Virus record (IMG/VR): IMGVR_UViG_2698536646_000013
DNA: 55,213 bases
Source: a virus
Taxonomy: Duplodnaviria; Heunggongvirae; Uroviricota; Caudoviricetes
Strand: one strand, 5' to 3'
Shown piece by piece: positions 3,849-53,661 of the stretch. The notes under the pieces are model-generated. The model was not told the origin of the DNA. It did not search any database and saw only the letters and a list, made by a program, of their open reading frames with translations. Positions within the stretch are counted from its first letter, which is position 1. Each line of letters starts with the position of its first letter. Made by a program: the position numbers and the translations under genes.

Positions 3849-5196
3849 AAAGTCATTCTCGAAAAAAAATCTTCTAAAAGTATACTCTGAAAAAATCAAA
3901 GAATCAGGAGCGATTGGCATAGATCGGATTCGCCCATCAAAACTTGATTTGACAATAAAAAATGAGATCACTTTCATTTTTGAAAAGGTTAATTCTGGCA
4001 ATTACAAATTTACAGCATATAAAGAAAAATTAATATCTAAAGGCGCTAACTCTACACCCAGACAGATTTCCATACCAACTGCTAGGGACAGAATTACTCT
4101 TAGAGCTCTCTGTGAATGCCTTACGGAAATATATCCTAAGTCCAGATTAAAACTACCACATACAGTAATTGACTCATTGAAAGAAGCATTAAACAACAGT
4201 CTATATGCTGAATATGCAAAAATAGATCTTAAAAGTTTCTATCCTTCAATTGAACATAAATTGATAATTAATGCAATAAAAAATAAAATTAGAAAAAAAG
4301 AAATTAGACAGTTAATAACATCATCATTAATCGTGCCTACTGTAAGTGGAACCACAGGAAGCAAAGGTATCCCTAATAATACCAGAGGAGTACCTCAGGG
4401 ATTAGCGATATCAAACATTTTAGCTGAAATATCACTATCTAATTTCGATGATGAAATCAATAAAATGCATGACATATGGTACATGCGATACGTTGATGAC
4501 ATTCTTATTTTAACACCAAAATATCAAGCAACAAAAATAGCTTCTCATATCATTGATAAGCTTCAATCATTAAATTTAAACCCACATCCATTAAATGAAG
4601 AGAACTCAAAATCCAAAGTAGGCAGCTTGGATGAAAGTTTCAACTTTTTGGGCTACCACATAAAAAATCGAGAATTATTGATAAAACATGAGAGCATTCT
4701 TAGATTTGAGTCATCCTTAGCAAAAATTTTTACTGCATATAGACACGCTCTACTACAAGCTAAAAATAAGCGCGATAAAGAACGAGCTGTTGCATATTGT
4801 CAGTGGAAACTAAATCTTAGAATTACGGGATGTGTGTTTGAAGGTAAACGATTGGGATGGGTATCGTACTTCTCACAAATAACGTCAACAGCTCAACTTC
4901 GAGCTGTTAATCATACGATCAATAATCTTATCCGCCGATTCGGCCTTTCATCAGAAATAAAACCAAAGTCTTTGATTAAAACTTTCTATGAACTCCGCAG
5001 GGGTAGAGCGGAGACTTTTAAATACATACCTAACTTTGACAATCTACATATATCTCAGAAACGAGAAATTGTTTCTATGTGGATAGGGAAAGAGAATGAA
5101 AAAAAACTTAGCAATAGTGAAATAGAGAGAAAATTTAAATTTAAAATTGCGAAATCAGTAAAAGAGCTTGAAGAGGACATTTCAGGGATATCATAG
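3820..5196 (+). CDS. Reverse transcriptase (retron-type or defence-associated RT)
   Basis: 458 aa with RT motifs PRQISIPTARDRITLRAL, KIDLKSFYPSI, GVPQGLAISNIL, YMRYVDDILIL and FNFLGYHI, plus an ITG motif in the C-terminal thumb-like region. Very AT-rich. Confidence 0.9.
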   Translation: MTMTASRIFKKSFSKKNLLKVYSEKIKESGAIGIDRIRPSKLDLTIKNEITFIFEKVNSGNYKFTAYKEKLISKGANSTPRQISIPTARDRITLRALCECLTEIYPKSRLKLPHTVIDSLKEALNNSLYAEYAKIDLKSFYPSIEHKLIINAIKNKIRKKEIRQLITSSLIVPTVSGTTGSKGIPNNTRGVPQGLAISNILAEISLSNFDDEINKMHDIWYMRYVDDILILTPKYQATKIASHIIDKLQSLNLNPHPLNEENSKSKVGSLDESFNFLGYHIKNRELLIKHESILRFESSLAKIFTAYRHALLQAKNKRDKERAVAYCQWKLNLRITGCVFEGKRLGWVSYFSQITSTAQLRAVNHTINNLIRRFGLSSEIKPKSLIKTFYELRRGRAETFKYIPNFDNLHISQKREIVSMWIGKENEKKLSNSEIERKFKFKIAKSVKELEEDISGIS

Positions 5197-5260
5197 ATAT
5201 GTAATCCATTAAATCCTTTATATATAAAGCAATAAACACACTATTTAAATTCACAAATCA

Positions 5261-5294
5261 GCCGCAGTATCCTGCCATGACAAGTTGCTGCGGC
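5261..5294. other. Hairpin between the convergent RT and tfa genes
   Basis: gccgcag...ctgcggc 7-bp inverted repeat with a 20-nt loop, T-rich on the minus-strand side. Possible terminator for the late operon. Confidence 0.3.
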
Positions 5295-5308
5295 ATATCA
5301 CAAAACGA

Positions 5309-5998
5309 TTACTCCATAACAGGGACCGCAGGCCACTCAATATCAGGTGCAGTTGATGTATCAACACGGTTCAGCAACACCCGATACTTCTTCCAGGCTT
5401 CCAGCAACGAGTTTTCTTCCTCCGNNNNNNNNNNNNNNNNNNNNNNNNNNNNNNNNNNNNNNNNNNNNNNNNNNNNNNNNNNNNNNNNNNNNNNNNNNNN
5501 NNNNNNNNNNNNNNNNNNNNNNNNNNNNNNNNNNNNNNNNNNNNNNNNNNNNNNNNNNNNNNNNNNNNNNNNNNNNNNNNNNNNNNNNNNNNNNNNNNNN
5601 NNNNNNNNNNNNNNNNNNNNNNNNNNNNNNNNNNNNNNNNNNNNNNNNNNNNNNNNNNNNNNNNNNNNNNNNNNNNNNNNNNNNNNNNNNNNNNNNNNNN
5701 NNNNNNNNNNNNNNNNNNNNNNNNNNNNNNNNNNNNNNNNNNNNNNNNNNNNNNNNNNNNNNNNNNNNNNNNNNNNNNNNNNNNNNNNNNNNNNNNNNNN
5801 NNNNNNNNNNNNNNNNNNNNNNNNNNNAACAGCCACAAAGCCAGCCGGAATATCTGGCGGTGCAATATAGGTACTGTTTGCTGGCAGACCTGTATGAGGC
5901 GGAATATATGCGTCACCTTCACCAATAAATTCATTAGTTCCGGTCAGCAGATTATAAATTTTTATGGTCCGTGGTTGTTCACTCATTCTGAATGCCAT
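5309..5998 (-). CDS. tfa: Tail fibre assembly protein (Tfa), interrupted by N-run
   Basis: N-terminus [18 protein letters not shown]...[10 protein letters not shown] and C-terminus [30 protein letters not shown] resemble lambda/Rac Tfa. Start overlaps the stf stop (TAATG). Confidence 0.8.
5425..5827. other. N-run (assembly gap or masked sequence) inside tfa
   Basis: 403 consecutive N. Confidence 0.95.
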
Positions 5999-35904: not shown

Positions 35905-35931
35905 CAATATAAAAAGCTCGCCGTAGCGAGC
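35905..35931 (-). terminator. Rho-independent terminator between lipoprotein gene and holin
   Basis: Stem agctcgc / gcgagct, loop cgta, followed on the minus strand by TTTTATATT. Confidence 0.45.
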
Positions 35932-36057
35932 TAATAAAATGTATTTCTCTGATATTATGTTTATTTGTATTAGCTCAGACTTGACATCACAGGTTTCGTA
36001 TATAGAACATCATCAAATCTGTCAGTTTGCTATGAATGAGATATAGTAATTGAAGAG

Positions 36058-36453
36058 CTAACCTCGCATGTCAAAGCCAGATTTCTGAAAATCTCTGTAG
36101 ACTTCCGGATTGTTGAAGGCCGGAAATTTGGCTTTATGAGCTGCGGACTTTATCGCTTCGCAATAGGCTTTATCACCGTTACTGGTAGATATTTTTAACG
36201 CCGTGCCATCCTGAGAGAATTCCATATGCAACCTGCATTTTTTCCCTTTCCAGTTATGCGGCTCATCAAGTTTGGCATTAATTGCAGCTCTGATTCCCCG
36301 CGCTTGCGCCCCCCATTCATCCTGATCATCCCAGCGTCCTGAACTGCAACTACCTGTAGCAGTAGTTTTGTGGCAATCTGAAGGGTGTAAAGGTGTGCAT
36401 CCCGCAACAAAACCGACCCAAAAAGTCAACATAACGATTTTCTTTAATCCCAC
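36058..36453 (-). CDS. Lipoprotein with TolA C-terminal (domain III)-like region, paralogue 1
   Basis: 131 aa, lipobox FVAGC, C-terminus ...GKKCRLHMEFSQDGTALKIS...FPAFNNPEVYRDFQKSGFDMRG. Paralogous to the next gene. Confidence 0.8.
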   Translation of the reverse strand: MGLKKIVMLTFWVGFVAGCTPLHPSDCHKTTATGSCSSGRWDDQDEWGAQARGIRAAINAKLDEPHNWKGKKCRLHMEFSQDGTALKISTSNGDKAYCEAIKSAAHKAKFPAFNNPEVYRDFQKSGFDMRG

Positions 36454-36603
36454 TTCTTGCTCCTCAATCCATTAAAATCTCAGCAATAGTAGTTGTTACG
36501 TCCGCCACTGGCTCAGAGCTGACTATCCGCTAAATTTAGCTCAGTGCCGTAGCTGTGTCAGAACAAACCTAAGCCGAAACCGTTTATTACAAAACAATAA
36601 ATA

Positions 36604-37032
36604 TCAGGGTTTAAAATCCAGCACCCCATTTTGAAATACTTTATATACTTCCGGCGAAGGGGGGGCAGGTATATCAGCATTCTTTATCGCATTCATCGCT
36701 TCACGACATAAATCGAGGTCTCCACTTTCTCTTTTAACCTCCAGTAGAAGGCCATTCGGGGCCATATGCATTCTCAGTGTACACTCTTTTCCTGAATACT
36801 TACTCGCATCCCCGAACTGTTTTTCGATGGCGCTCTTGATTTGATGGGCATACAGACGGATATCCTCACTAACATCAGAAGTACGTTCAGATGAACTCAC
36901 ATACTGTGTCTCTATTGCTTTATCGGAGTAATATGATGTACGGTCATGATAATTTGTCGATACAGCATCAGTGCACCCGATAATAATCCCACTAATAATC
37001 AACGTAAGAATTGATGCGCTACGAAAACCCAT
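36604..37032 (-). CDS. Lipoprotein with TolA C-terminal (domain III)-like region, paralogue 2
   Basis: 142 aa, lipobox IIGC, C-terminus YAHQIKSAIEKQFGDASKYSGKECTLRMHMAPNGLLLEVK...IPAPPSPEVYKVFQNGVLDFKP, which resembles the TolA C-terminal domain as I recall it. Confidence 0.8.
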   Translation of the reverse strand: MGFRSASILTLIISGIIIGCTDAVSTNYHDRTSYYSDKAIETQYVSSSERTSDVSEDIRLYAHQIKSAIEKQFGDASKYSGKECTLRMHMAPNGLLLEVKRESGDLDLCREAMNAIKNADIPAPPSPEVYKVFQNGVLDFKP

Positions 37033-37620
37033 TTTTCCTCACATATGTCATATAGTAAAGGATTATATATACCGTTGTTTTGGACGCTCAAACAGCGAAT
37101 CAGATCAAATAAAACGCACATTTGTTAACATTTACACAAAGTCTGCGTGGGATATTCTGAAAGAATATCCATAATGTGGAGAGAATCTATTGAAGTGCAT
37201 GGTGCCGGGTGCCTCCCGGTGAACAAAATGTTCGTGATACCTGTCGGCGACAGAAAAGGTTAATGGTATCACCCCACCGCACAGGGGGATTCACCATGCA
37301 GGAGTTTTCTTAGCAAACTCACTGCGCGCCCGGCAACTCCCAACCACATAAAATGCGGAGTTTGTGGCATTTATGCATATAACTCGCAGGAATTATCTTA
37401 AAAAACTGATGTCGATCCGGATTAAAAAGAAGCAGGTCATCATCAGATGACTGGAAAAAAGGAAAACAAAAAATACTCATCATACAGTTTTGATTGCAGG
37501 GATGAGCCTGCTATGCACAATATGCAGAATATAAGCAAGATAAAAATATGCAGGCATATTATTTCGGATCTTGTTATTAACACAACCTTTTTAATAATCA
37601 TTTGGCATACAATAAACCAG

Positions 37621-37650
37621 CCCAAAAAGAACCGCCTAAACAGGCGGTTG
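37621..37650 (-). terminator. Rho-independent terminator in the Q-to-lysis intergenic region
   Basis: Stem aaccgcc / ggcggtt, loop taaaca, followed on the minus strand by CTTTTTGGG. Confidence 0.5.
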
Positions 37651-37969
37651 GTCAATACAAAGGATGCTTCGTCTTTATTATAGTAATCTGAGGCGTCGGG
37701 TGTCTTGTATCAGACAACATATTGTCCCGCTAAACAGCGAATTACAAACCACCCTGCAATGATCTCTCATCTCATTTTATATGAGTTGACGACATCAGGA
37801 TAACGCATCATCAGCCCCTGCCAAGAAATATCAAAACTCCCGCCAGCAATGTGTTATCACAATATTGTAAAAAAAACACAGCACCGAAACTATAACTGGT
37901 CTCTGTTATAATTTGGAGCAGAAAGACCAGTTGCCCAACTAGCAGCATTCTCCCCTGCTTTCCTGACGT

Positions 37970-37997
37970 AAAAAAACCGCATTAAGCGGTTTTTTTA
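37970..37997. terminator. Bidirectional rho-independent terminator about 80 bp downstream of Q (tR'-like)
   Basis: A7-aaccgc-attaa-gcggtt-T7: hairpin flanked by an A-run and a T-run, so it can terminate on either strand. Confidence 0.55.
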
Positions 37998-38076
37998 CGA
38001 TGTCCATGTCTGCAATCCGCCTCGCGATACAGCTTTGCGAAGCATAGCAAAATTGAAGCAGTTTATACGTAAGAAA

Positions 38077-38619
38077 TCAAGCCATTTTCTCAGCAAATGA
38101 TTCACGCATGGGAATATATAGGGCATACTCAGCAACAGCTAACCAATTAGCAATCCGTTTTTCGCATGTGCTAAAACACCACTCTGGGTGTGCATCATTT
38201 AGCAATTCAGCCATTTTGCGCTTAGTCATCCCCCGCCCTTCATAGCGTTGCCGGAGAATGCAAATCAATCCTGGATGCTCTGCCAGCACCTCACTTATGA
38301 CTCGATCAATACATAACGCCTCTGCATCAGTACAATGCGCCAGCCAGCTCTTTTGCTTGCCGTTGATCATCTCTCGCAAAAACGCTTCCAGCTCAGCTTT
38401 CTCTATTCCCGCTTTTTTCATTCTGCGCAGGGCTTCATTAATGGCTGTTTTCGTCAGTTTTTTGGATGCCAACAACTGATTGAACATATTCCCTGACCTG
38501 CCACCGCCAATATACGACCAGCGCCCCCACATACGTAGTTTTCCCTGAATCCAGACACTTTCCAGCGTGGTGAGGCGAAGGTGTTCTCCGCTTTTTCCTG
38601 TATTCGTTGGGTAAATCAT
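38077..38619 (-). CDS. Late-gene antitermination protein Q
   Basis: 180 aa, located just upstream of the terminator-rich late leader and lysis genes. Start overlaps the ybcO-like stop (ATGA). Confidence 0.75.
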   Translation of the reverse strand: MIYPTNTGKSGEHLRLTTLESVWIQGKLRMWGRWSYIGGGRSGNMFNQLLASKKLTKTAINEALRRMKKAGIEKAELEAFLREMINGKQKSWLAHCTDAEALCIDRVISEVLAEHPGLICILRQRYEGRGMTKRKMAELLNDAHPEWCFSTCEKRIANWLAVAEYALYIPMRESFAEKMA

Positions 38620-38906
38620 AAATGACCTTTCTTTCTCCAGATTTCTTGTGTGCGAAAAACCCCTTCAGCATGCATCAGGCGCAATTCTTCTTTGGTGTAA
38701 TCGCTGGTTTTTACCCGCCCGTCGATTAGATCGTGGCATGAGCTACAGGCTATCGCCGCCTGCATATCATGTGGTTTTGTCGCTGTTCCGCACGTCCCCG
38801 CCAGCCTGTAATGCGCCAGCACAGAGGTTTCGGGATTGTGATTGCAGTAGCCAGGGATTCTGATCTGGCACATCTGGCCTTTAGCCGCTTTACGTAAATT
38901 CACCAT
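38616..38906 (-). CDS. YbcO-like protein (DUF1364)
   Basis: 96 aa, MVNLRKAAKGQMCQIRIPGYCNHNPETSVLAHYRLAG...ACSSCHD, matches DLP12 YbcO as I recall it. Confidence 0.8.
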   Translation of the reverse strand: MVNLRKAAKGQMCQIRIPGYCNHNPETSVLAHYRLAGTCGTATKPHDMQAAIACSSCHDLIDGRVKTSDYTKEELRLMHAEGVFRTQEIWRKKGHL

Positions 38907-39505
38907 TACGCAAACTCCAGTAGTTGTGCGGCCACATTTTCAACTTCCTCCTGAGAGGAGAATTTACGGAACAGAATCCAGTTCCACAGCACATTCAGTA
39001 CAGATTTATAAACCTGCTGAAACTCGACTTCGTCCATATTCGCAAAAGCGATGGATTTTGCCCGACGCCCACGGCTACCGTCCGGATAAATATGCTCGGT
39101 GTAAAATCCGGCCTGAATGGTTACCCACTCGCGGAAAGCCTCAAACGACTTTAGCAACGCCGTATCCCGGGTTCTACGAGTCGCAACGGTGTTAAGGTAT
39201 TGCTCTGCGGCATCACTCAGGGCTGGCGTGTGTTCCCGACCAACTGATTCGCACAGGTAATCAACGAAACCAGACAGCAGTTCTCGTTCGCGAGGCGTGA
39301 TCGCCCCACCGACCGGAGTCCAGTAATCGAATCCCAGTTGCAGGAGTTTGAAAAAACGCTTGTGGAATGCGTAGTTACGCACACGCTTAAAGTCTGCGTG
39401 TATCCACTCACCTATTTTGATTTGATGCAGAAAATCGCAACTCTCCGGCGTCGCCGGGAGAAGTAAACCAGAAGAGGTTTGTTTGACCAGTTGTATATGC
39501 GCCAT
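38906..39505 (-). CDS. DUF1367-family phage protein
   Basis: 199 aa, MAHIQLVKQTSSGLLLPATPESCDFLHQIKIGEWIHADFK..., a common nin-region protein of lambdoid prophages. Confidence 0.75.
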   Translation of the reverse strand: MAHIQLVKQTSSGLLLPATPESCDFLHQIKIGEWIHADFKRVRNYAFHKRFFKLLQLGFDYWTPVGGAITPRERELLSGFVDYLCESVGREHTPALSDAAEQYLNTVATRRTRDTALLKSFEAFREWVTIQAGFYTEHIYPDGSRGRRAKSIAFANMDEVEFQQVYKSVLNVLWNWILFRKFSSQEEVENVAAQLLEFA

Positions 39506-40263: not shown

Positions 40264-40303
40264 TTGACATAACCCTCCAAAAGATGCATTTTTAATGCAT
40301 GTT
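40264..40303 (+). promoter_or_regulatory. Promoter with NsrR-type operator upstream of the yeaR-like gene
   Basis: -35 TTGACA at 40264-40269. AAGATGCATTT-T-TAATGCATGTT at 40281-40303 fits the 11-1-11 NsrR inverted repeat (AAGATGCATTT-N-AAATGCATCTT) at 20 of 22 positions. Confidence 0.5.
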
Positions 40304-40318
40304 TTGGAGGAGGTGGTT

Positions 40319-40657
40319 ATGACACACAAGAGAATTCCTAAAGATTGGGTAATCAAACGCTCAACTCCGTTCTTCACAAAAGAGAACGTACCTTCAGCGT
40401 TATTAACACATCATAATACAGCAGCAGGTGTTTTTGGGCAGTTGTGCGTAATGGAAGGCACTGTAACATATTATGGTTTTACTGATGAGAATGCTACTGA
40501 ACCGGAGATAAAAGTAGTCATTAATGCTGGCGCTTTTGCAACAAGCCCACCACAATACTGGCACCGTGTTGAACTAAGCGATGATGCTCAGTTTAATATT
40601 AACTTTTGGGTCGCTCCAGACTTTTCGGGCGAAAAAGTCTATAGCACCAAAAAATAG
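40319..40657 (+). CDS. YeaR-like protein (DUF1971, TehB-like cupin)
   Basis: 112 aa from MTHKRIPKDW, RBS GGAGGAGGTGG. RSTPFF...AAGVF...LCVMEGTVTYYGF..EP...AGAFA..PPQYWH...FNINFWVAP parallels K-12 YeaR. Confidence 0.85.
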   Translation: MTHKRIPKDWVIKRSTPFFTKENVPSALLTHHNTAAGVFGQLCVMEGTVTYYGFTDENATEPEIKVVINAGAFATSPPQYWHRVELSDDAQFNINFWVAPDFSGEKVYSTKK

Positions 40658-41277: not shown

Positions 41278-42279
41278 TTAGTAATCTGCGTGTTTCGCAC
41301 TTTTCAGAAATGCTTTCATATTTTCATTAGGTCGCTCAATTTCGAAGTTACTTCCATATAACTCTTGTAATTTTGGCCATAACTTACTTAATAACCCTCT
41401 CCTGCGATAAAATGGATGTATCCAAACGGTAGATAGGTACGGAGAATTTGCATTTGAATTGTTTATTGTGACCAGCCCAACTAAACATTGTCGATAACCA
41501 CTATTATCCATTGATTGTATTTCTTCGACGAATGGATACGCGATTACATCAGTCCAACCATGATCGGTTGTATCCCATTGCATTCCGTCATGACATTCCT
41601 TCGACTGATAGCGGCGTAAAGCTACACACGCGAGCTTTTGCCAATCTGGAGAATTAATTGTGATCTCTTCATCGTATGACGCGCCTATTGGAGCGGGTAT
41701 TGGTCTGATTAATCCAGCATGGCATTCATCATAGAACTTCATGTTTCCCTCAGAAACGTTGTGTACGTTGGGTTGCTCCATGTGTGCGCCATTCAAAAAT
41801 AGCTCTGATAGTAGTGTATCTACACTGTAATCTTTATTGATTATTGTCGGCTTAGAGTTTTTCTTATTAAGGCCGCGAGTAACGATTTTTTGATCAATGT
41901 TAACAACATGGAATAATCCGTCGGGGAGGCTAGCGAACCACGATGGGGCATCGGACCAGAATAGCATGCCTTTTGTACTTCTTAAGAGTTTAATTAAGTT
42001 AATACAAGCTTCTTCACTAGTCTTGCCGTTGATGCGAAGTATGTTAGGACTAAAGTAATATTCATCCATATCAGGGAATGCAGCTTCGCAAAACTCCTGT
42101 ACATAATTTAGCACCTGGATTCTACAGAGATCATCATAGCTGGTAATAACTAAGGGGGTATCTTCATTACTATTATGATTATCAATAATGCAATCTATAG
42201 CGAGACTTACTGCTTTGCGTATCACTTCAGTTGAATCTAACGACTCTAAAAATTTTGTCTTTCGTGTGCGAATATCCAT
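41278..42279 (-). CDS. Hypothetical protein, possible GNAT-like C-terminus (second gene of AT-rich cargo operon)
   Basis: 333 aa. C-terminal LVGLVTINN...VWIHPFYRRRGLLSKLW loosely resembles GNAT motif A. N-terminal 200 aa have no recognisable family. 15-bp gap to the upstream gene. Confidence 0.7.
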   Translation of the reverse strand: MDIRTRKTKFLESLDSTEVIRKAVSLAIDCIIDNHNSNEDTPLVITSYDDLCRIQVLNYVQEFCEAAFPDMDEYYFSPNILRINGKTSEEACINLIKLLRSTKGMLFWSDAPSWFASLPDGLFHVVNIDQKIVTRGLNKKNSKPTIINKDYSVDTLLSELFLNGAHMEQPNVHNVSEGNMKFYDECHAGLIRPIPAPIGASYDEEITINSPDWQKLACVALRRYQSKECHDGMQWDTTDHGWTDVIAYPFVEEIQSMDNSGYRQCLVGLVTINNSNANSPYLSTVWIHPFYRRRGLLSKLWPKLQELYGSNFEIERPNENMKAFLKSAKHADY

Positions 42280-42294
42280 GTATGACCTGCGCTA

Positions 42295-43317
42295 TTAAAA
42301 TTCATGAATGAACGGTTTGTCATCTGGTTGCAAAATGGTGGTTTTATTCGTTGCTACATTTAAACTGTTGTAGAGCATAATTGCCAGGTTCGATGCATTT
42401 TCAATCAGCGTTTCAAGATCCTGGTCTGTAATCACTACGAGGTTCCCTTCTTTATCCTTTCCACCACGATGCACTAAGTGATTTCGATTGAGGGTTGCCA
42501 ATTCAATAGCTTCTATCGGACAGTCTTTTTGTACTTTTATATCGAATGTAGCTTCATAGCGGTCGATTACCTTTTTAGTGCTATGCCAGCTTGCACTGAT
42601 CAAGTGTTCCTTGATTGACCTGATTAGCTCTCCCCTAATTTTCTCGATGGGTTCACCCTTGAAAGGCAACGCAGCAATATCTTTGCTTACTTTAAATTCA
42701 GTCTTACCTTTTTCTATACAATTGGCTATGTAGACATCATCTTTCTCTATAGAATTAATGAATAGCTCAACATAAAGCGTTTCCAAAGCTGTAATAACAT
42801 TCGTGTAGAGCAAACTAAGCAAGTGGTTTTTTTGCTGTTGTTCAGTTTTATCTTTTGCAAGTTTTTTTATTTTATCGATATTATCAATGAATTTTAAATA
42901 CGGATTACCGGAAGACGTTACAGCGTCGTAGATATCATCATCGTACCAATCATCTATATTATTTGAGTTTCCAGACCAGTCAAAACATTGTGTTTGTAAT
43001 TCATCTACTAATTCCTCAATATACTCAGATTTAACATATTGACCGAAGATGGATTGTAGTTCTTCGCTCGCATCATACGGCCCGCCATATATGTAAGCAT
43101 AGCCACCTTCTCTACTTTCATACGGACAAGCATTTGCCGGATCTTCAAAGTTTTCAAAGAACCAGTTTTTCATTACTTCGAGTTGATCTTTTTTGCTTAT
43201 GTATTTTAAAGATTTTAGTGGAACTTTCTTTCCATTAACCTCGAAAACAATTTTCACGATGTAACGCTCCCTTGTATCAATTGCGCAACTATTATACCAC
43301 AGCGAAATACAGGGCAT
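42295..43317 (-). CDS. Hypothetical protein with HEPN-type RNxxxH motif (first gene of AT-rich cargo operon)
   Basis: 340 aa from MPCISLWYN (ATG 43317, RBS AAGGAGG). C-terminal ...ELATLNRNHLVHRGG... contains R-N-x3-H. AT-rich relative to flanking phage genes. Confidence 0.7.
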   Translation of the reverse strand: MPCISLWYNSCAIDTRERYIVKIVFEVNGKKVPLKSLKYISKKDQLEVMKNWFFENFEDPANACPYESREGGYAYIYGGPYDASEELQSIFGQYVKSEYIEELVDELQTQCFDWSGNSNNIDDWYDDDIYDAVTSSGNPYLKFIDNIDKIKKLAKDKTEQQQKNHLLSLLYTNVITALETLYVELFINSIEKDDVYIANCIEKGKTEFKVSKDIAALPFKGEPIEKIRGELIRSIKEHLISASWHSTKKVIDRYEATFDIKVQKDCPIEAIELATLNRNHLVHRGGKDKEGNLVVITDQDLETLIENASNLAIMLYNSLNVATNKTTILQPDDKPFIHEF

Positions 43318-43455
43318 AACCTGCCTCCTTAAACTAACATACCATGAGCCAGCAATGTCCGCTATTGGCACAAAGCGGACAACCACGCTAGCTCTCCCCT
43401 GTGCCAGAAAAATGTCAATTTACATATGAACTAATGCTCTTTGATCTAGTAACGT

Positions 43456-53472: not shown

Positions 53473-53661
53473 ATGTATAAAATTACCGCCACTATTGAAA
53501 AGGAAGGTGGCACTCCTACTAACTGGACAAGATATTCAAAATCTAAACTAACGAAATCAGAATGCGAAAAAATGCTCTCAGGTAAAAAAGAAGCAGGCGT
53601 TTCCAGAGAGCAGAAAGTAAAACTGATAAATTTTAATTGCGAGAAACTTCAGTCCTCGTGA
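53473..53661 (+). CDS. ydaC: YdaC-like small protein
   Basis: 62 aa MYKITATIEKEGGTPTNWTRYSKSKLTKSECEKMLSGKKEAGVSREQKVKLINFNCEKLQSS, RBS GGAGG. Confidence 0.6.
   Translation: MYKITATIEKEGGTPTNWTRYSKSKLTKSECEKMLSGKKEAGVSREQKVKLINFNCEKLQSS

Follow-up and report, generated by a model that had tools for sequence, protein, structure and literature searches.

We studied an ORF-poor gap of 1,044 nt (37033-38076) within a window of 55,213 nt, i.e., the whole stretch of DNA that was analysed. The gap reaches from the stop of the upstream gene (38077) to the ATG of the first lipoprotein gene (37032), and the longest ORF inside it has at most 78 aa. The late genes of the prophage run from high to low coordinates, that is, the relevant strand is the minus strand, on which DUF1367, YbcO and DUF1133 genes are followed by the gap, the lipoprotein genes, holin, lysozyme and Rz. 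The leader spans about 2.2 kb from the DUF1133 gene to the holin gene, with three terminators along its length and two units embedded in it. By its markers, the prophage is a Rac-type lambdoid one: the window has a RalA antitoxin RNA (53479-53657), and in a near-identical relative, trkG directly follows Rz.

Of 5,426 complete E. coli genomes, 446 carry the exact 1-kb leader, where no feature is annotated. A preliminary description of the gap had listed a number of features, all of which are present with coordinates agreeing to within 1-3 nt. Our main reading, to which we assign a probability of about 0.75, is that the gap combines an ordinary lambdoid late leader with one copy of STnc100, a known family of prophage sRNAs. 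The respective features are as follows.

38906-39505, minus strand: DUF1367 gene, upstream of the YbcO gene
38616-38906, minus strand: YbcO gene, upstream of the DUF1133 gene
38077-38619, minus strand: Q-like late antiterminator gene of the DUF1133 family, 180 aa
38021-38064, minus strand: candidate conserved late-promoter/qut block, from positional alignment in about 25 DUF1133 loci
37967-37999, both strands: tR'-like bidirectional intrinsic terminator with perfect 14-nt arms, supported by folding z-scores
37765-37899, minus strand: filler block
37622-37706, minus strand: conserved block with the second terminator, consisting of a promoter-like AAGACA-18-TATAAT (37706-37677), CATCCTTTGTATTGACC and a stem (37649-37630) plus U-run
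37443-37683, both strands: overlapping short hydrophobic ORFs, not genes
37307-37336, minus strand: promoter-like element of STnc100
37143-37329, minus strand: STnc100-family sRNA gene (Rfam RF02076)
37150-37170, minus strand: perfect 9-3-9 palindrome, 3' terminal hairpin of STnc100
37107-37148, minus strand: weak second hairpin followed by UUUUAUUU, possible weak STnc100 terminator
37062-37091, minus strand: promoter-like TTGAGC-18-TATAAT before the lipoprotein genes
36058-37032, minus strand: two TolA C-terminal-domain lipoprotein genes (36604-37032 and 36058-36453)
35915-35932, minus strand: third intrinsic terminator, AGCTCGCTACGGCGAGCT and TTTTT, downstream of the lipoprotein cassette and ahead of the holin gene
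35863-34633, minus strand: P21-type holin, lysozyme and Rz, the lysis genes downstream of the leader

The two lipoprotein genes match the TolA C-terminal domain (PF06519) with 82.6 and 54.6 bits and belong to PHROG 5772. By its setting, the pair is an accessory cassette ('moron') inserted into the late operon; the same pair is found in the viable phage mEp460 behind a different Q. The promoter-like site in front of it is proposed from its agreement with the consensus at 10/12 positions. With 3 terminator-like sites, the region does not exceed the shuffle expectation of 2.1 +/- 1.5. We judge the terminators to be real by their strength and their conserved position in relatives, not by their number.

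The Q-like gene, the candidate qut block and the first terminator

The gene upstream of the gap, called Q in the preliminary description, encodes a protein that matches DUF1133 (PF06576) in Pfam with 356 bits. Its match to Phage_antitermQ (PF06530) is borderline (26.1 bits at a cut-off of 26), and it is assigned to PHROG 753, a family named 'Q-like'. Furthermore, a DUF1133 profile of 12 family members matches the phage 21 Q structures 6jnx and 6p18 (E = 3e-5), where the match spans the N-terminal W..G.L..WG.W motif and the C-terminal half. The gene also occupies the Q position, i.e., downstream of DUF1367 and YbcO and upstream of the lysis cassette. Naming it Q is thus reasonable, in the sense of a distant relative of phage 21 Q, with low scores (26 bits) behind the homology. 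It is the only Q-like gene of the window. In the literature searched, DUF1133 is not mentioned in any paper. In the relative L001 a second Q gene is annotated; we rejected one for the window, which differs upstream of DUF1367 and carries none, and the ORFs at the counterpart of the second Q are DUF977, DUF1627 and two poorly matched proteins.

To characterise the sequence that follows the gene, 33 loci with DUF1133 relatives were fetched from species-representative genomes, and 39 loci were used for motif counts. Aligned by its position after DUF1133, a conserved block is observed in about 25 loci from Escherichia, Salmonella, Citrobacter, Klebsiella, Enterobacter, Buttiauxella, Kluyvera, Pantoea and others. 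Its general form is ...TGCTTnAATT-nnnn-TA(n)GCT-nnnn-A(A/C)G..., followed by a variable spacer and a strong intrinsic terminator, which lies 40-110 nt past the block in nearly all DUF1133 loci. The conserved motif, TGCTTnAATTnnnnTAnGCT, is specific to the DUF1133 family. In the window it takes the form TGCTTCAATTTTGCTATGCT (38060-38041, minus strand) with a -10-like TATGCT (38046-38041) preceded by TG (38049-38048). This 20-nt motif has exactly one match in the window; among the 39 loci, it occurs in exact form once per locus in 17, always on the gene strand.

The block also stays in the leader when other sequences are inserted. In a Salmonella locus (L010), an isrK-C4-antirepressor (anrP) cassette lies between the DUF1133 gene and the block, and in a Pantoea locus (L012) a hok/sok cassette takes this place. 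In both, the block is kept 0.6-0.9 kb further downstream with 81-86% identity to the block of the window. Since it is specific to one Q family and retained despite insertions, we consider the block a candidate for the cognate pR'/qut site, i.e., 38064-38021 would comprise the promoter and the Q loading site of the DUF1133 antiterminator. Its region also contains a TGCTTC direct repeat with 16-bp spacing.

Two placements of the putative promoter can be envisaged, which would put the transcription start between about 38045 and 38034. TAnGCT (38046-38041) may be the -10 element of an extended -10 promoter with no good -35 at 17 bp, such that transcription would start at about 38034. In the other placement, TAnGCT may act as a sigma-dependent pause element, and the promoter would be TTGATT-17-TTCAAT (TTGATT 38080-38075, TTCAAT 38057-38052) with a start at about 38045, where the TTCAAT -10 is without the usual A at position 2. 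A further candidate for a pause element is a TA 14-15 nt downstream of TAnGCT.

The first terminator begins 77 nt past the DUF1133 stop codon, in line with the preliminary description, which had placed a bidirectional terminator at 37970-37997 about 80 bp from the Q stop. Its perfect 14-nt arms (37967-37980 and 37986-37999) enclose a 5-nt loop and are flanked by an A-run and a T-run. On the plus strand, the hairpin has a folding energy of -19.5 kcal/mol (z = -5.5); within a 71-nt minus-strand RNA, -26.8 kcal/mol (z = -4.7) is obtained. The predicted leader RNA of the uninduced state would thus be about 64-75 nt long and would consist of a small 5' hairpin and the terminator (37999-37967). IsrJ was considered as an equivalent of this short RNA: no isrJ match was found at E <= 5 in the window nor at E <= 10 in positions 5330-5700 of L010.

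A Q cassette has been defined as a Q gene followed by pR', a pause element, a terminator and the late genes (10.1101/651190), and the architecture of the region fits this published definition, with pR' and the pause element as candidates. With a Q-like gene, a conserved block after its stop and a strong terminator behind it in about 25 loci, the initial reading of the gap as a pR'/qut/tR' region is supported. Compared to the pR'-6S RNA-tR' region of lambda and the Q/QBE/SDPE system of phage 21, the window shares a Q-family gene, a conserved block (here a candidate promoter), a short terminated transcript (here predicted), terminators and lysis genes. It differs in that its protein is of the DUF1133 family and only distantly related to Q21 (E = 3e-5), that the block motif is specific to this family, and that the leader to the holin is long and holds three terminators.

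A similar comparison can be made with Gifsy-1, for which antitermination effects of AntQ were shown experimentally and the locus order is antQ-isrK-orf45-anrP-isrJ (PMC4825925). In loci from E. coli, Shigella and Salmonella, the DUF1133 gene is followed by a true isrK 33-45 nt later (67-81 bits), as is the case for AntQ of Gifsy-1. That is, by synteny the window shares the antiterminator family with Gifsy-1 as well as a slot directly downstream that is filled with small-RNA genes. In contrast, the window is without isrK, C4 RNA and antirepressor, which in L010 precede the window-type block.

The STnc100 copy and its palindromic 3' hairpin

An Rfam search yields one STnc100 match (37329-37143, minus strand) with 86.6 bits (gathering score 47, E = 3e-17), which covers the full model (positions 1-206). 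The copy is in the lower part of the family score range (77-172 bits in relatives). Its structured core (37300-37196) is a local GC peak and forms a five-helix junction, i.e., a closing helix P1 and four further helices. These helices, each based on fold and covariation analysis, and the tail behind them are located on the minus strand as follows.

37300-37292 with 37204-37196: P1
37288-37284 with 37278-37273: P2
37272-37265 with 37241-37234: P3
37233-37229 with 37225-37221: P4
37219-37215 with 37209-37205: P5
37195-37171: single-stranded tail between core and 3' hairpin

The minimum-energy fold of the window copy equals the family consensus in all five helices (-55.1 kcal/mol, z = -3.8). The consensus was computed by RNAalifold from an alignment of 19 copies, which stem from E. 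coli, Klebsiella and a Pantoea plasmid. Here, 96.2% of the cells pair, compared to 40-46% when partners are slid by 1-3 columns. Compensatory changes are found for 17/29 pairs, and the observed values are reached in 0/500 shuffles. P2 and P5 are near-invariant in sequence, while P1, P3 and P4 covary. In terms of helix order, a closing stem is followed by four arms, the last of which leads straight into the closing stem.

All 19 copies of the alignment, including those from Pantoea and Klebsiella, show a -10-like hexamer 8-13 nt upstream of P1, often after TGn. In the window, the respective promoter-like element consists of a -35 TTGCCG (37336-37331), a TG (37315-37314) and a -10 TAAGAA (37312-37307). 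This suggests that each STnc100 copy is a gene of its own and that about the first 30 positions of the Rfam model are promoter DNA. By analogy, the window copy would be transcribed from 37336-37307 in the lysogen.

The perfect 9-3-9 palindrome near 37150-37170 that had been noted before is present, with arms GGATATTCT and AGAATATCC at 37150-37158 and 37162-37170. By our estimate, about 0.02 such palindromes per kb are expected by chance (1044 positions x about 6 loop sizes x 4^-9). Its place in the Rfam alignment is that of the terminator hairpin, i.e., the STnc100 copy has the palindrome as its 3' terminal hairpin, which the earlier reader had not recognised. At the RNA level, it reads GGAUAUUCU-UUC-AGAAUAUCC, followed by CACGCAG; it is AT-rich and has no U-tract. 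Most STnc100 copies end in GCCCCTCTCCGGAGGGGC and a run of Ts, whereas this GC-rich intrinsic terminator with U-tract is absent from the window copy. The AT-rich palindrome without U-tract or GC-rich stem is common to the window, L002, L037a and L038a. Hfq-dependent sRNAs normally need a U-tailed terminator. Since the canonical terminator is missing, the RNA may either end weakly at the second hairpin and its U-tract (37148-37107; -9.3 kcal/mol, z = -1.6), which follow at a distance of 35 nt and for which no compensatory changes are found in L037, or run on into the TolA-like lipoprotein genes.

STnc100 is among the most abundant bacterial sRNA families by copy number. Viral contigs carry the invariant P5 sequence in at least 120 stretches. 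Enough flanking sequence was available for 148 copies, whose 70 nt past the core form at least 47 clusters, most of which end in an intrinsic terminator. By these counts, the family combines a constant core with highly variable tails, and the tail of the window copy, which lies directly upstream of the TolA-like lipoprotein cassette, is one of the at least 47 types. Tandem arrays are common, e.g., L003 has five copies, and L038 and a Pantoea plasmid (L034) have four each. Beside this, the block 37223-37033 recurs with 100% identity in phage mEp460 and in Qin-like prophages whose Q is different, and the mosaic joint at 37223 falls within the invariant P5 hairpin.

Other members of the family are known as RNAs expressed in lysogens, based on published RpoD ChIP-exo and RNA-seq. 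In EDL933, eleven STnc100 copies are expressed in culture, one of them with confirmation by Northern blot (PMC5331693), and copies of Salmonella LT2 bind RpoD according to RpoD ChIP-exo (PMC10794520). One copy, located 75 nt downstream of stx2B, overlaps EcOnc27, an RNA bound by Hfq (PMC12370729, PMC12711010), and the Hfq-dependent PasD RNAs of EPEC are structural relatives of STnc100 (PMC8550237, 10.64898/2026.05.13.724894). The respective Rfam/review entry gives no function (PMC9029176). With STnc100, PasD1, PasD2 and EcOnc27 (sRNA103, from EHEC), the window copy shares a model match above threshold, the same five-helix core and the same invariant loops, where its likeness to PasD rests on the STnc100 family relation, i.e., the window copy was compared with STnc100 sequences. 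It also shares with the family the site between the Q gene and the lysis genes as well as the promoter-like -10 just upstream of P1. In contrast, its 3' end is the AT-rich palindrome without U-tract and not a GC-rich stem followed by Ts.

The middle of the leader and the cargo slot

Between the first terminator and the STnc100 copy, the middle 640 nt are, judged by their relatives, non-coding filler of a recombination hotspot. In E. coli genomes, this part is either near-identical (about 450 genomes) or present as diverged blocks, and no homologues of the middle 636 nt were found in the phage database. One of these blocks (37899-37765) has a 73%-identical counterpart in L039 (2501-2632), which is located just downstream of a tRNA-Thr/tRNA-Gly pair.

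Another block (37706-37622) contains the second terminator, for which the preliminary description of a minus-strand terminator at 37621-37650 was accurate: an 8-bp stem (37649-37630) is followed by CTTTTT on the minus strand only, with no T-run on the plus strand. In the alignment with L037, L005 and L038, the stem is kept and the loop varies, and in those relatives tRNA arrays lie upstream. The block may give rise to a transcript of about 48 nt, or it may be the terminator that closes the tRNA arrays in relatives.

The window itself has no tRNA genes: ARAGORN finds none in the whole window, and the Rfam tRNA model gives no match at E <= 5 in 36900-38200. We therefore rejected tRNA or tRNA-like genes in the leader, which agrees with the lack of a T-loop motif stated earlier. 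Relatives carry 2-4 tRNA genes here, which follow the first terminator and precede the blocks homologous to 37899-37765 and 37705-37330. More generally, the same slot is filled in relatives with tRNA arrays, hok/sok, isrK-C4-antirepressor, cspA or STnc100 arrays, which bears out the suggestion that the region is a hotspot for small RNAs and tRNAs. In Stx and other lambdoid prophages, the cargo slot of the late leader holds tRNA genes, e.g., ileZ-argN-argO, and then stx or accessory genes. The window corresponds to this arrangement in position and mosaic behaviour, and close relatives carry the tRNA genes in front of the blocks homologous to 37899-37330. It differs in that it has neither a tRNA gene nor a toxin; its cargo is STnc100 and the two TolA-like lipoproteins.

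Alternative readings and proposed working of the leader

The strongest rival of the main reading, though a rather unlikely one, is that the STnc100-like element acts in cis. The TolA-like lipoprotein mRNA would then start from promoter 37336-37307 and have the element as its structured 5' leader, e.g., for 5'-end protection or control of translation or processing, and the element would not be an independent trans-acting sRNA. This is consistent with the 3' end shared by the window, L002, L037a and L038a, i.e., without GC-rich stem and U-tract, and with the tolA-like gene that starts about 170 nt past the core in the window, L002 and L037a (none is annotated in L038). Furthermore, the next strong terminator (35932-35915) comes only after the second lipoprotein gene, and the tail and tolA module are jointly identical (100%) in mEp460 and the Qin-like prophages with different Q. 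However, the weak hairpin with UUUUAUUU (37148-37107) and the promoter-like TTGAGC-18-TATAAT (37091-37062) lie in between and point to two units, and most STnc100 members are free-standing with their own terminator. Far less probable, in our view, is that the palindrome is not an RNA hairpin but the DNA operator of a dimeric regulator of the lipoprotein promoter. In its favour, the inverted repeat is perfect and AT-rich, has a 3-bp spacer, lies about 70 bp ahead of the promoter-like site and has no U-tract behind it. Yet in the STnc100 covariance model it falls on the positions of the terminator hairpin, and related copies have different hairpin sequences at the same place, which is how an RNA hairpin behaves and unlike a conserved operator; no candidate regulator gene adjoins it.

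Two further readings concern the remainder of the leader, and we hold both to be highly improbable. One takes 38043-37970 for a homologue of IsrK, given that IsrK of Gifsy-1 directly follows the AntQ/DUF1133 gene. The Rfam isrK model (RF01394) gives a weak match in this place (21.6 bits, E = 0.04 in a 1.3-kb search), and true isrK copies start 33-45 nt after the DUF1133 stops in L006, L007 and L010. Nevertheless, this score is far from the gathering score of 50 and from the 67-81 bits of the true copies in these loci, and the resemblance is confined to the terminator. Moreover, L010 has both elements, with the window-type block about 0.85 kb further downstream, past isrK-C4-anrP. By this synteny, IsrK belongs to an inserted P1 immI-like cassette and does not correspond to the block. 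We therefore rejected the homology, based on the score below threshold and the synteny of L010. The other reading, to which we give the least credence, is that the overlapping ORFs encode small membrane proteins. The short hydrophobic ORFs of the preliminary description do exist (37443-37655 on the minus and 37447-37683 on the plus strand, with 70 and 78 aa) and have hydrophobic stretches; their possible meaning as genes did not stand. They have no match in Pfam or PHROG, are split across frames in L037, which is 83% identical, and are truncated in L004; their aa identity (58-63%) is below the nucleotide identity. In addition, one of them starts with TTG inside the terminator stem, and the ORF region is AT-rich (GC 0.35). 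A coding role was rejected given the missing family match, the frameshifts in L037 and the low aa identity.

Under the main reading, i.e., a lambdoid late leader with an STnc100 copy, we propose the following working. The DUF1133 gene would encode a Q21-like antiterminator whose cognate loading site (38064-38021) directly follows. Without Q, RNA polymerase would make an RNA of about 64-75 nt that ends at 37999-37967. Once Q is loaded, it would read through the first terminator, the second one at 37649-37630, STnc100, the lipoprotein cassette and the third terminator (35932-35915) into holin, lysozyme and Rz. By analogy with other copies, we expect that in the lysogen a promoter of its own drives STnc100, which would act as an Hfq-associated base-pairing RNA via its tail (37195-37171).

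A broader idea, which we put forward as quite doubtful, is that the invariant STnc100 core does not take part in base pairing with targets but serves as a scaffold (for a protein partner or for stability) to which 3' targeting tails are attached in exchangeable form, and at the same time as a recombination joint for modules of the late leader. The helix order of the core resembles the topology of a tRNA with a long variable arm. The copy without terminator ahead of the TolA-like genes would then be the scaffold reused as an mRNA leader.

For the prophage, these results mean that the leader can now be annotated, i.e., as late promoter/terminator, STnc100-family RNA and non-coding filler. For the DUF1133 antiterminators, which are the family of Gifsy-1 AntQ, they indicate that the gene comes with a conserved candidate loading site. 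With regard to STnc100, clues to the function of the family come from its constant core and variable tail, its tandem arrays and those copies that precede lipoprotein genes and have no terminator.

Prophage type and accessory genes

Judged by its sequence, the prophage element is Rac-type, because it carries the full-length RalA antitoxin sRNA that marks this type. The window would be expected to include the Q-to-lysis part of Rac that is presumably missing from E. coli K-12. In the near-identical relative (L001), trkG is situated immediately past Rz. The RalA sRNA, the genes with a possible accessory role and the signals next to them lie in the window as follows.

53479-53657, minus strand: RalA antitoxin sRNA, full-length (225 bits)
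within 41278-43386, minus strand: 363-aa ORF, weak match to a HEPN/RES N-terminal domain below the Pfam cut-off
within 41278-43386, minus strand: 333-aa ORF, weak GNAT match below the Pfam cut-off
40295-40657, plus strand (opposite to the two ORFs): DUF1971 gene
37091-37062, minus strand: promoter-like site of the lipoprotein cassette
36058-37032, minus strand: two tandem lipoprotein genes with TolA C-terminal domain
35915-35932, minus strand: terminator of the lipoprotein cassette, ahead of the holin gene

Both the 363-aa and the 333-aa ORF are located between DUF977 and DUF1367, where L001 carries different genes. The genes at this spot may be defence or other cargo. The lipoprotein gene pair, its promoter-like site and its own terminator form a self-contained accessory cassette, and the viable phage mEp460 has the same gene pair. 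We speculate that the TolA-like lipoproteins could keep out colicins or filamentous phages that enter by way of TolA.

The candidate promoter block behind the DUF1133 gene

Within the conserved candidate promoter block past the Q-like DUF1133 gene, TGCTTC is directly repeated at a spacing of 16 bp (window 38060-38055 and 38044-38039, minus strand). In other block types, the counterpart pairs are TGCTTG with GGCTCG or TGCTCG. The repeat may be a Q binding site, since the binding element of Q21 (the phage 21 Q protein) is also a direct repeat, made of two 8-bp subsites.

In Salmonella and Pantoea, an inserted cassette (isrK-C4-antirepressor and hok/sok, respectively) separates the DUF1133 gene from its conserved block. 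The inserted-cassette or isrK loci span 4588-5470 (L010), 4699-5187 (L012) and 4575-4776 (L006) of the respective comparison loci. Because the isrK matches overlap those of the Rfam model 'c4-a1b1' and a C4 antisense RNA comes next, the IsrK locus looks like an immI-type module of phage P1.

Enterobacterial DUF1133 prophage genes are also present on two contigs labelled Candidatus Nanosynbacter MAG (L009) and Vagococcus sp. (L015), where the encoded proteins share 100% and 58% identity, respectively, with that of the window. The most likely explanation for their non-enterobacterial labels is that these public records are contaminated or mis-binned.

STnc100 arrays and a mosaic joint

Tandem arrays of 3-5 copies of the sRNA STnc100 within one late leader are frequent (L003 1231-4181; L038 2810-3925; L037 2936-4293; L034 5049-6165). 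On the last of these, a Pantoea plasmid, four consecutive copies follow a DUF1133 gene that is very distantly related (38% identity).

A mosaic joint is located at window position 37223, within the P5 helix of the STnc100 core. Downstream of it, mEp460 and Qin-like prophages match the window at 100% identity; upstream, the window tracks another lineage. The invariant STnc100 core may serve to link late-leader modules by homologous recombination.
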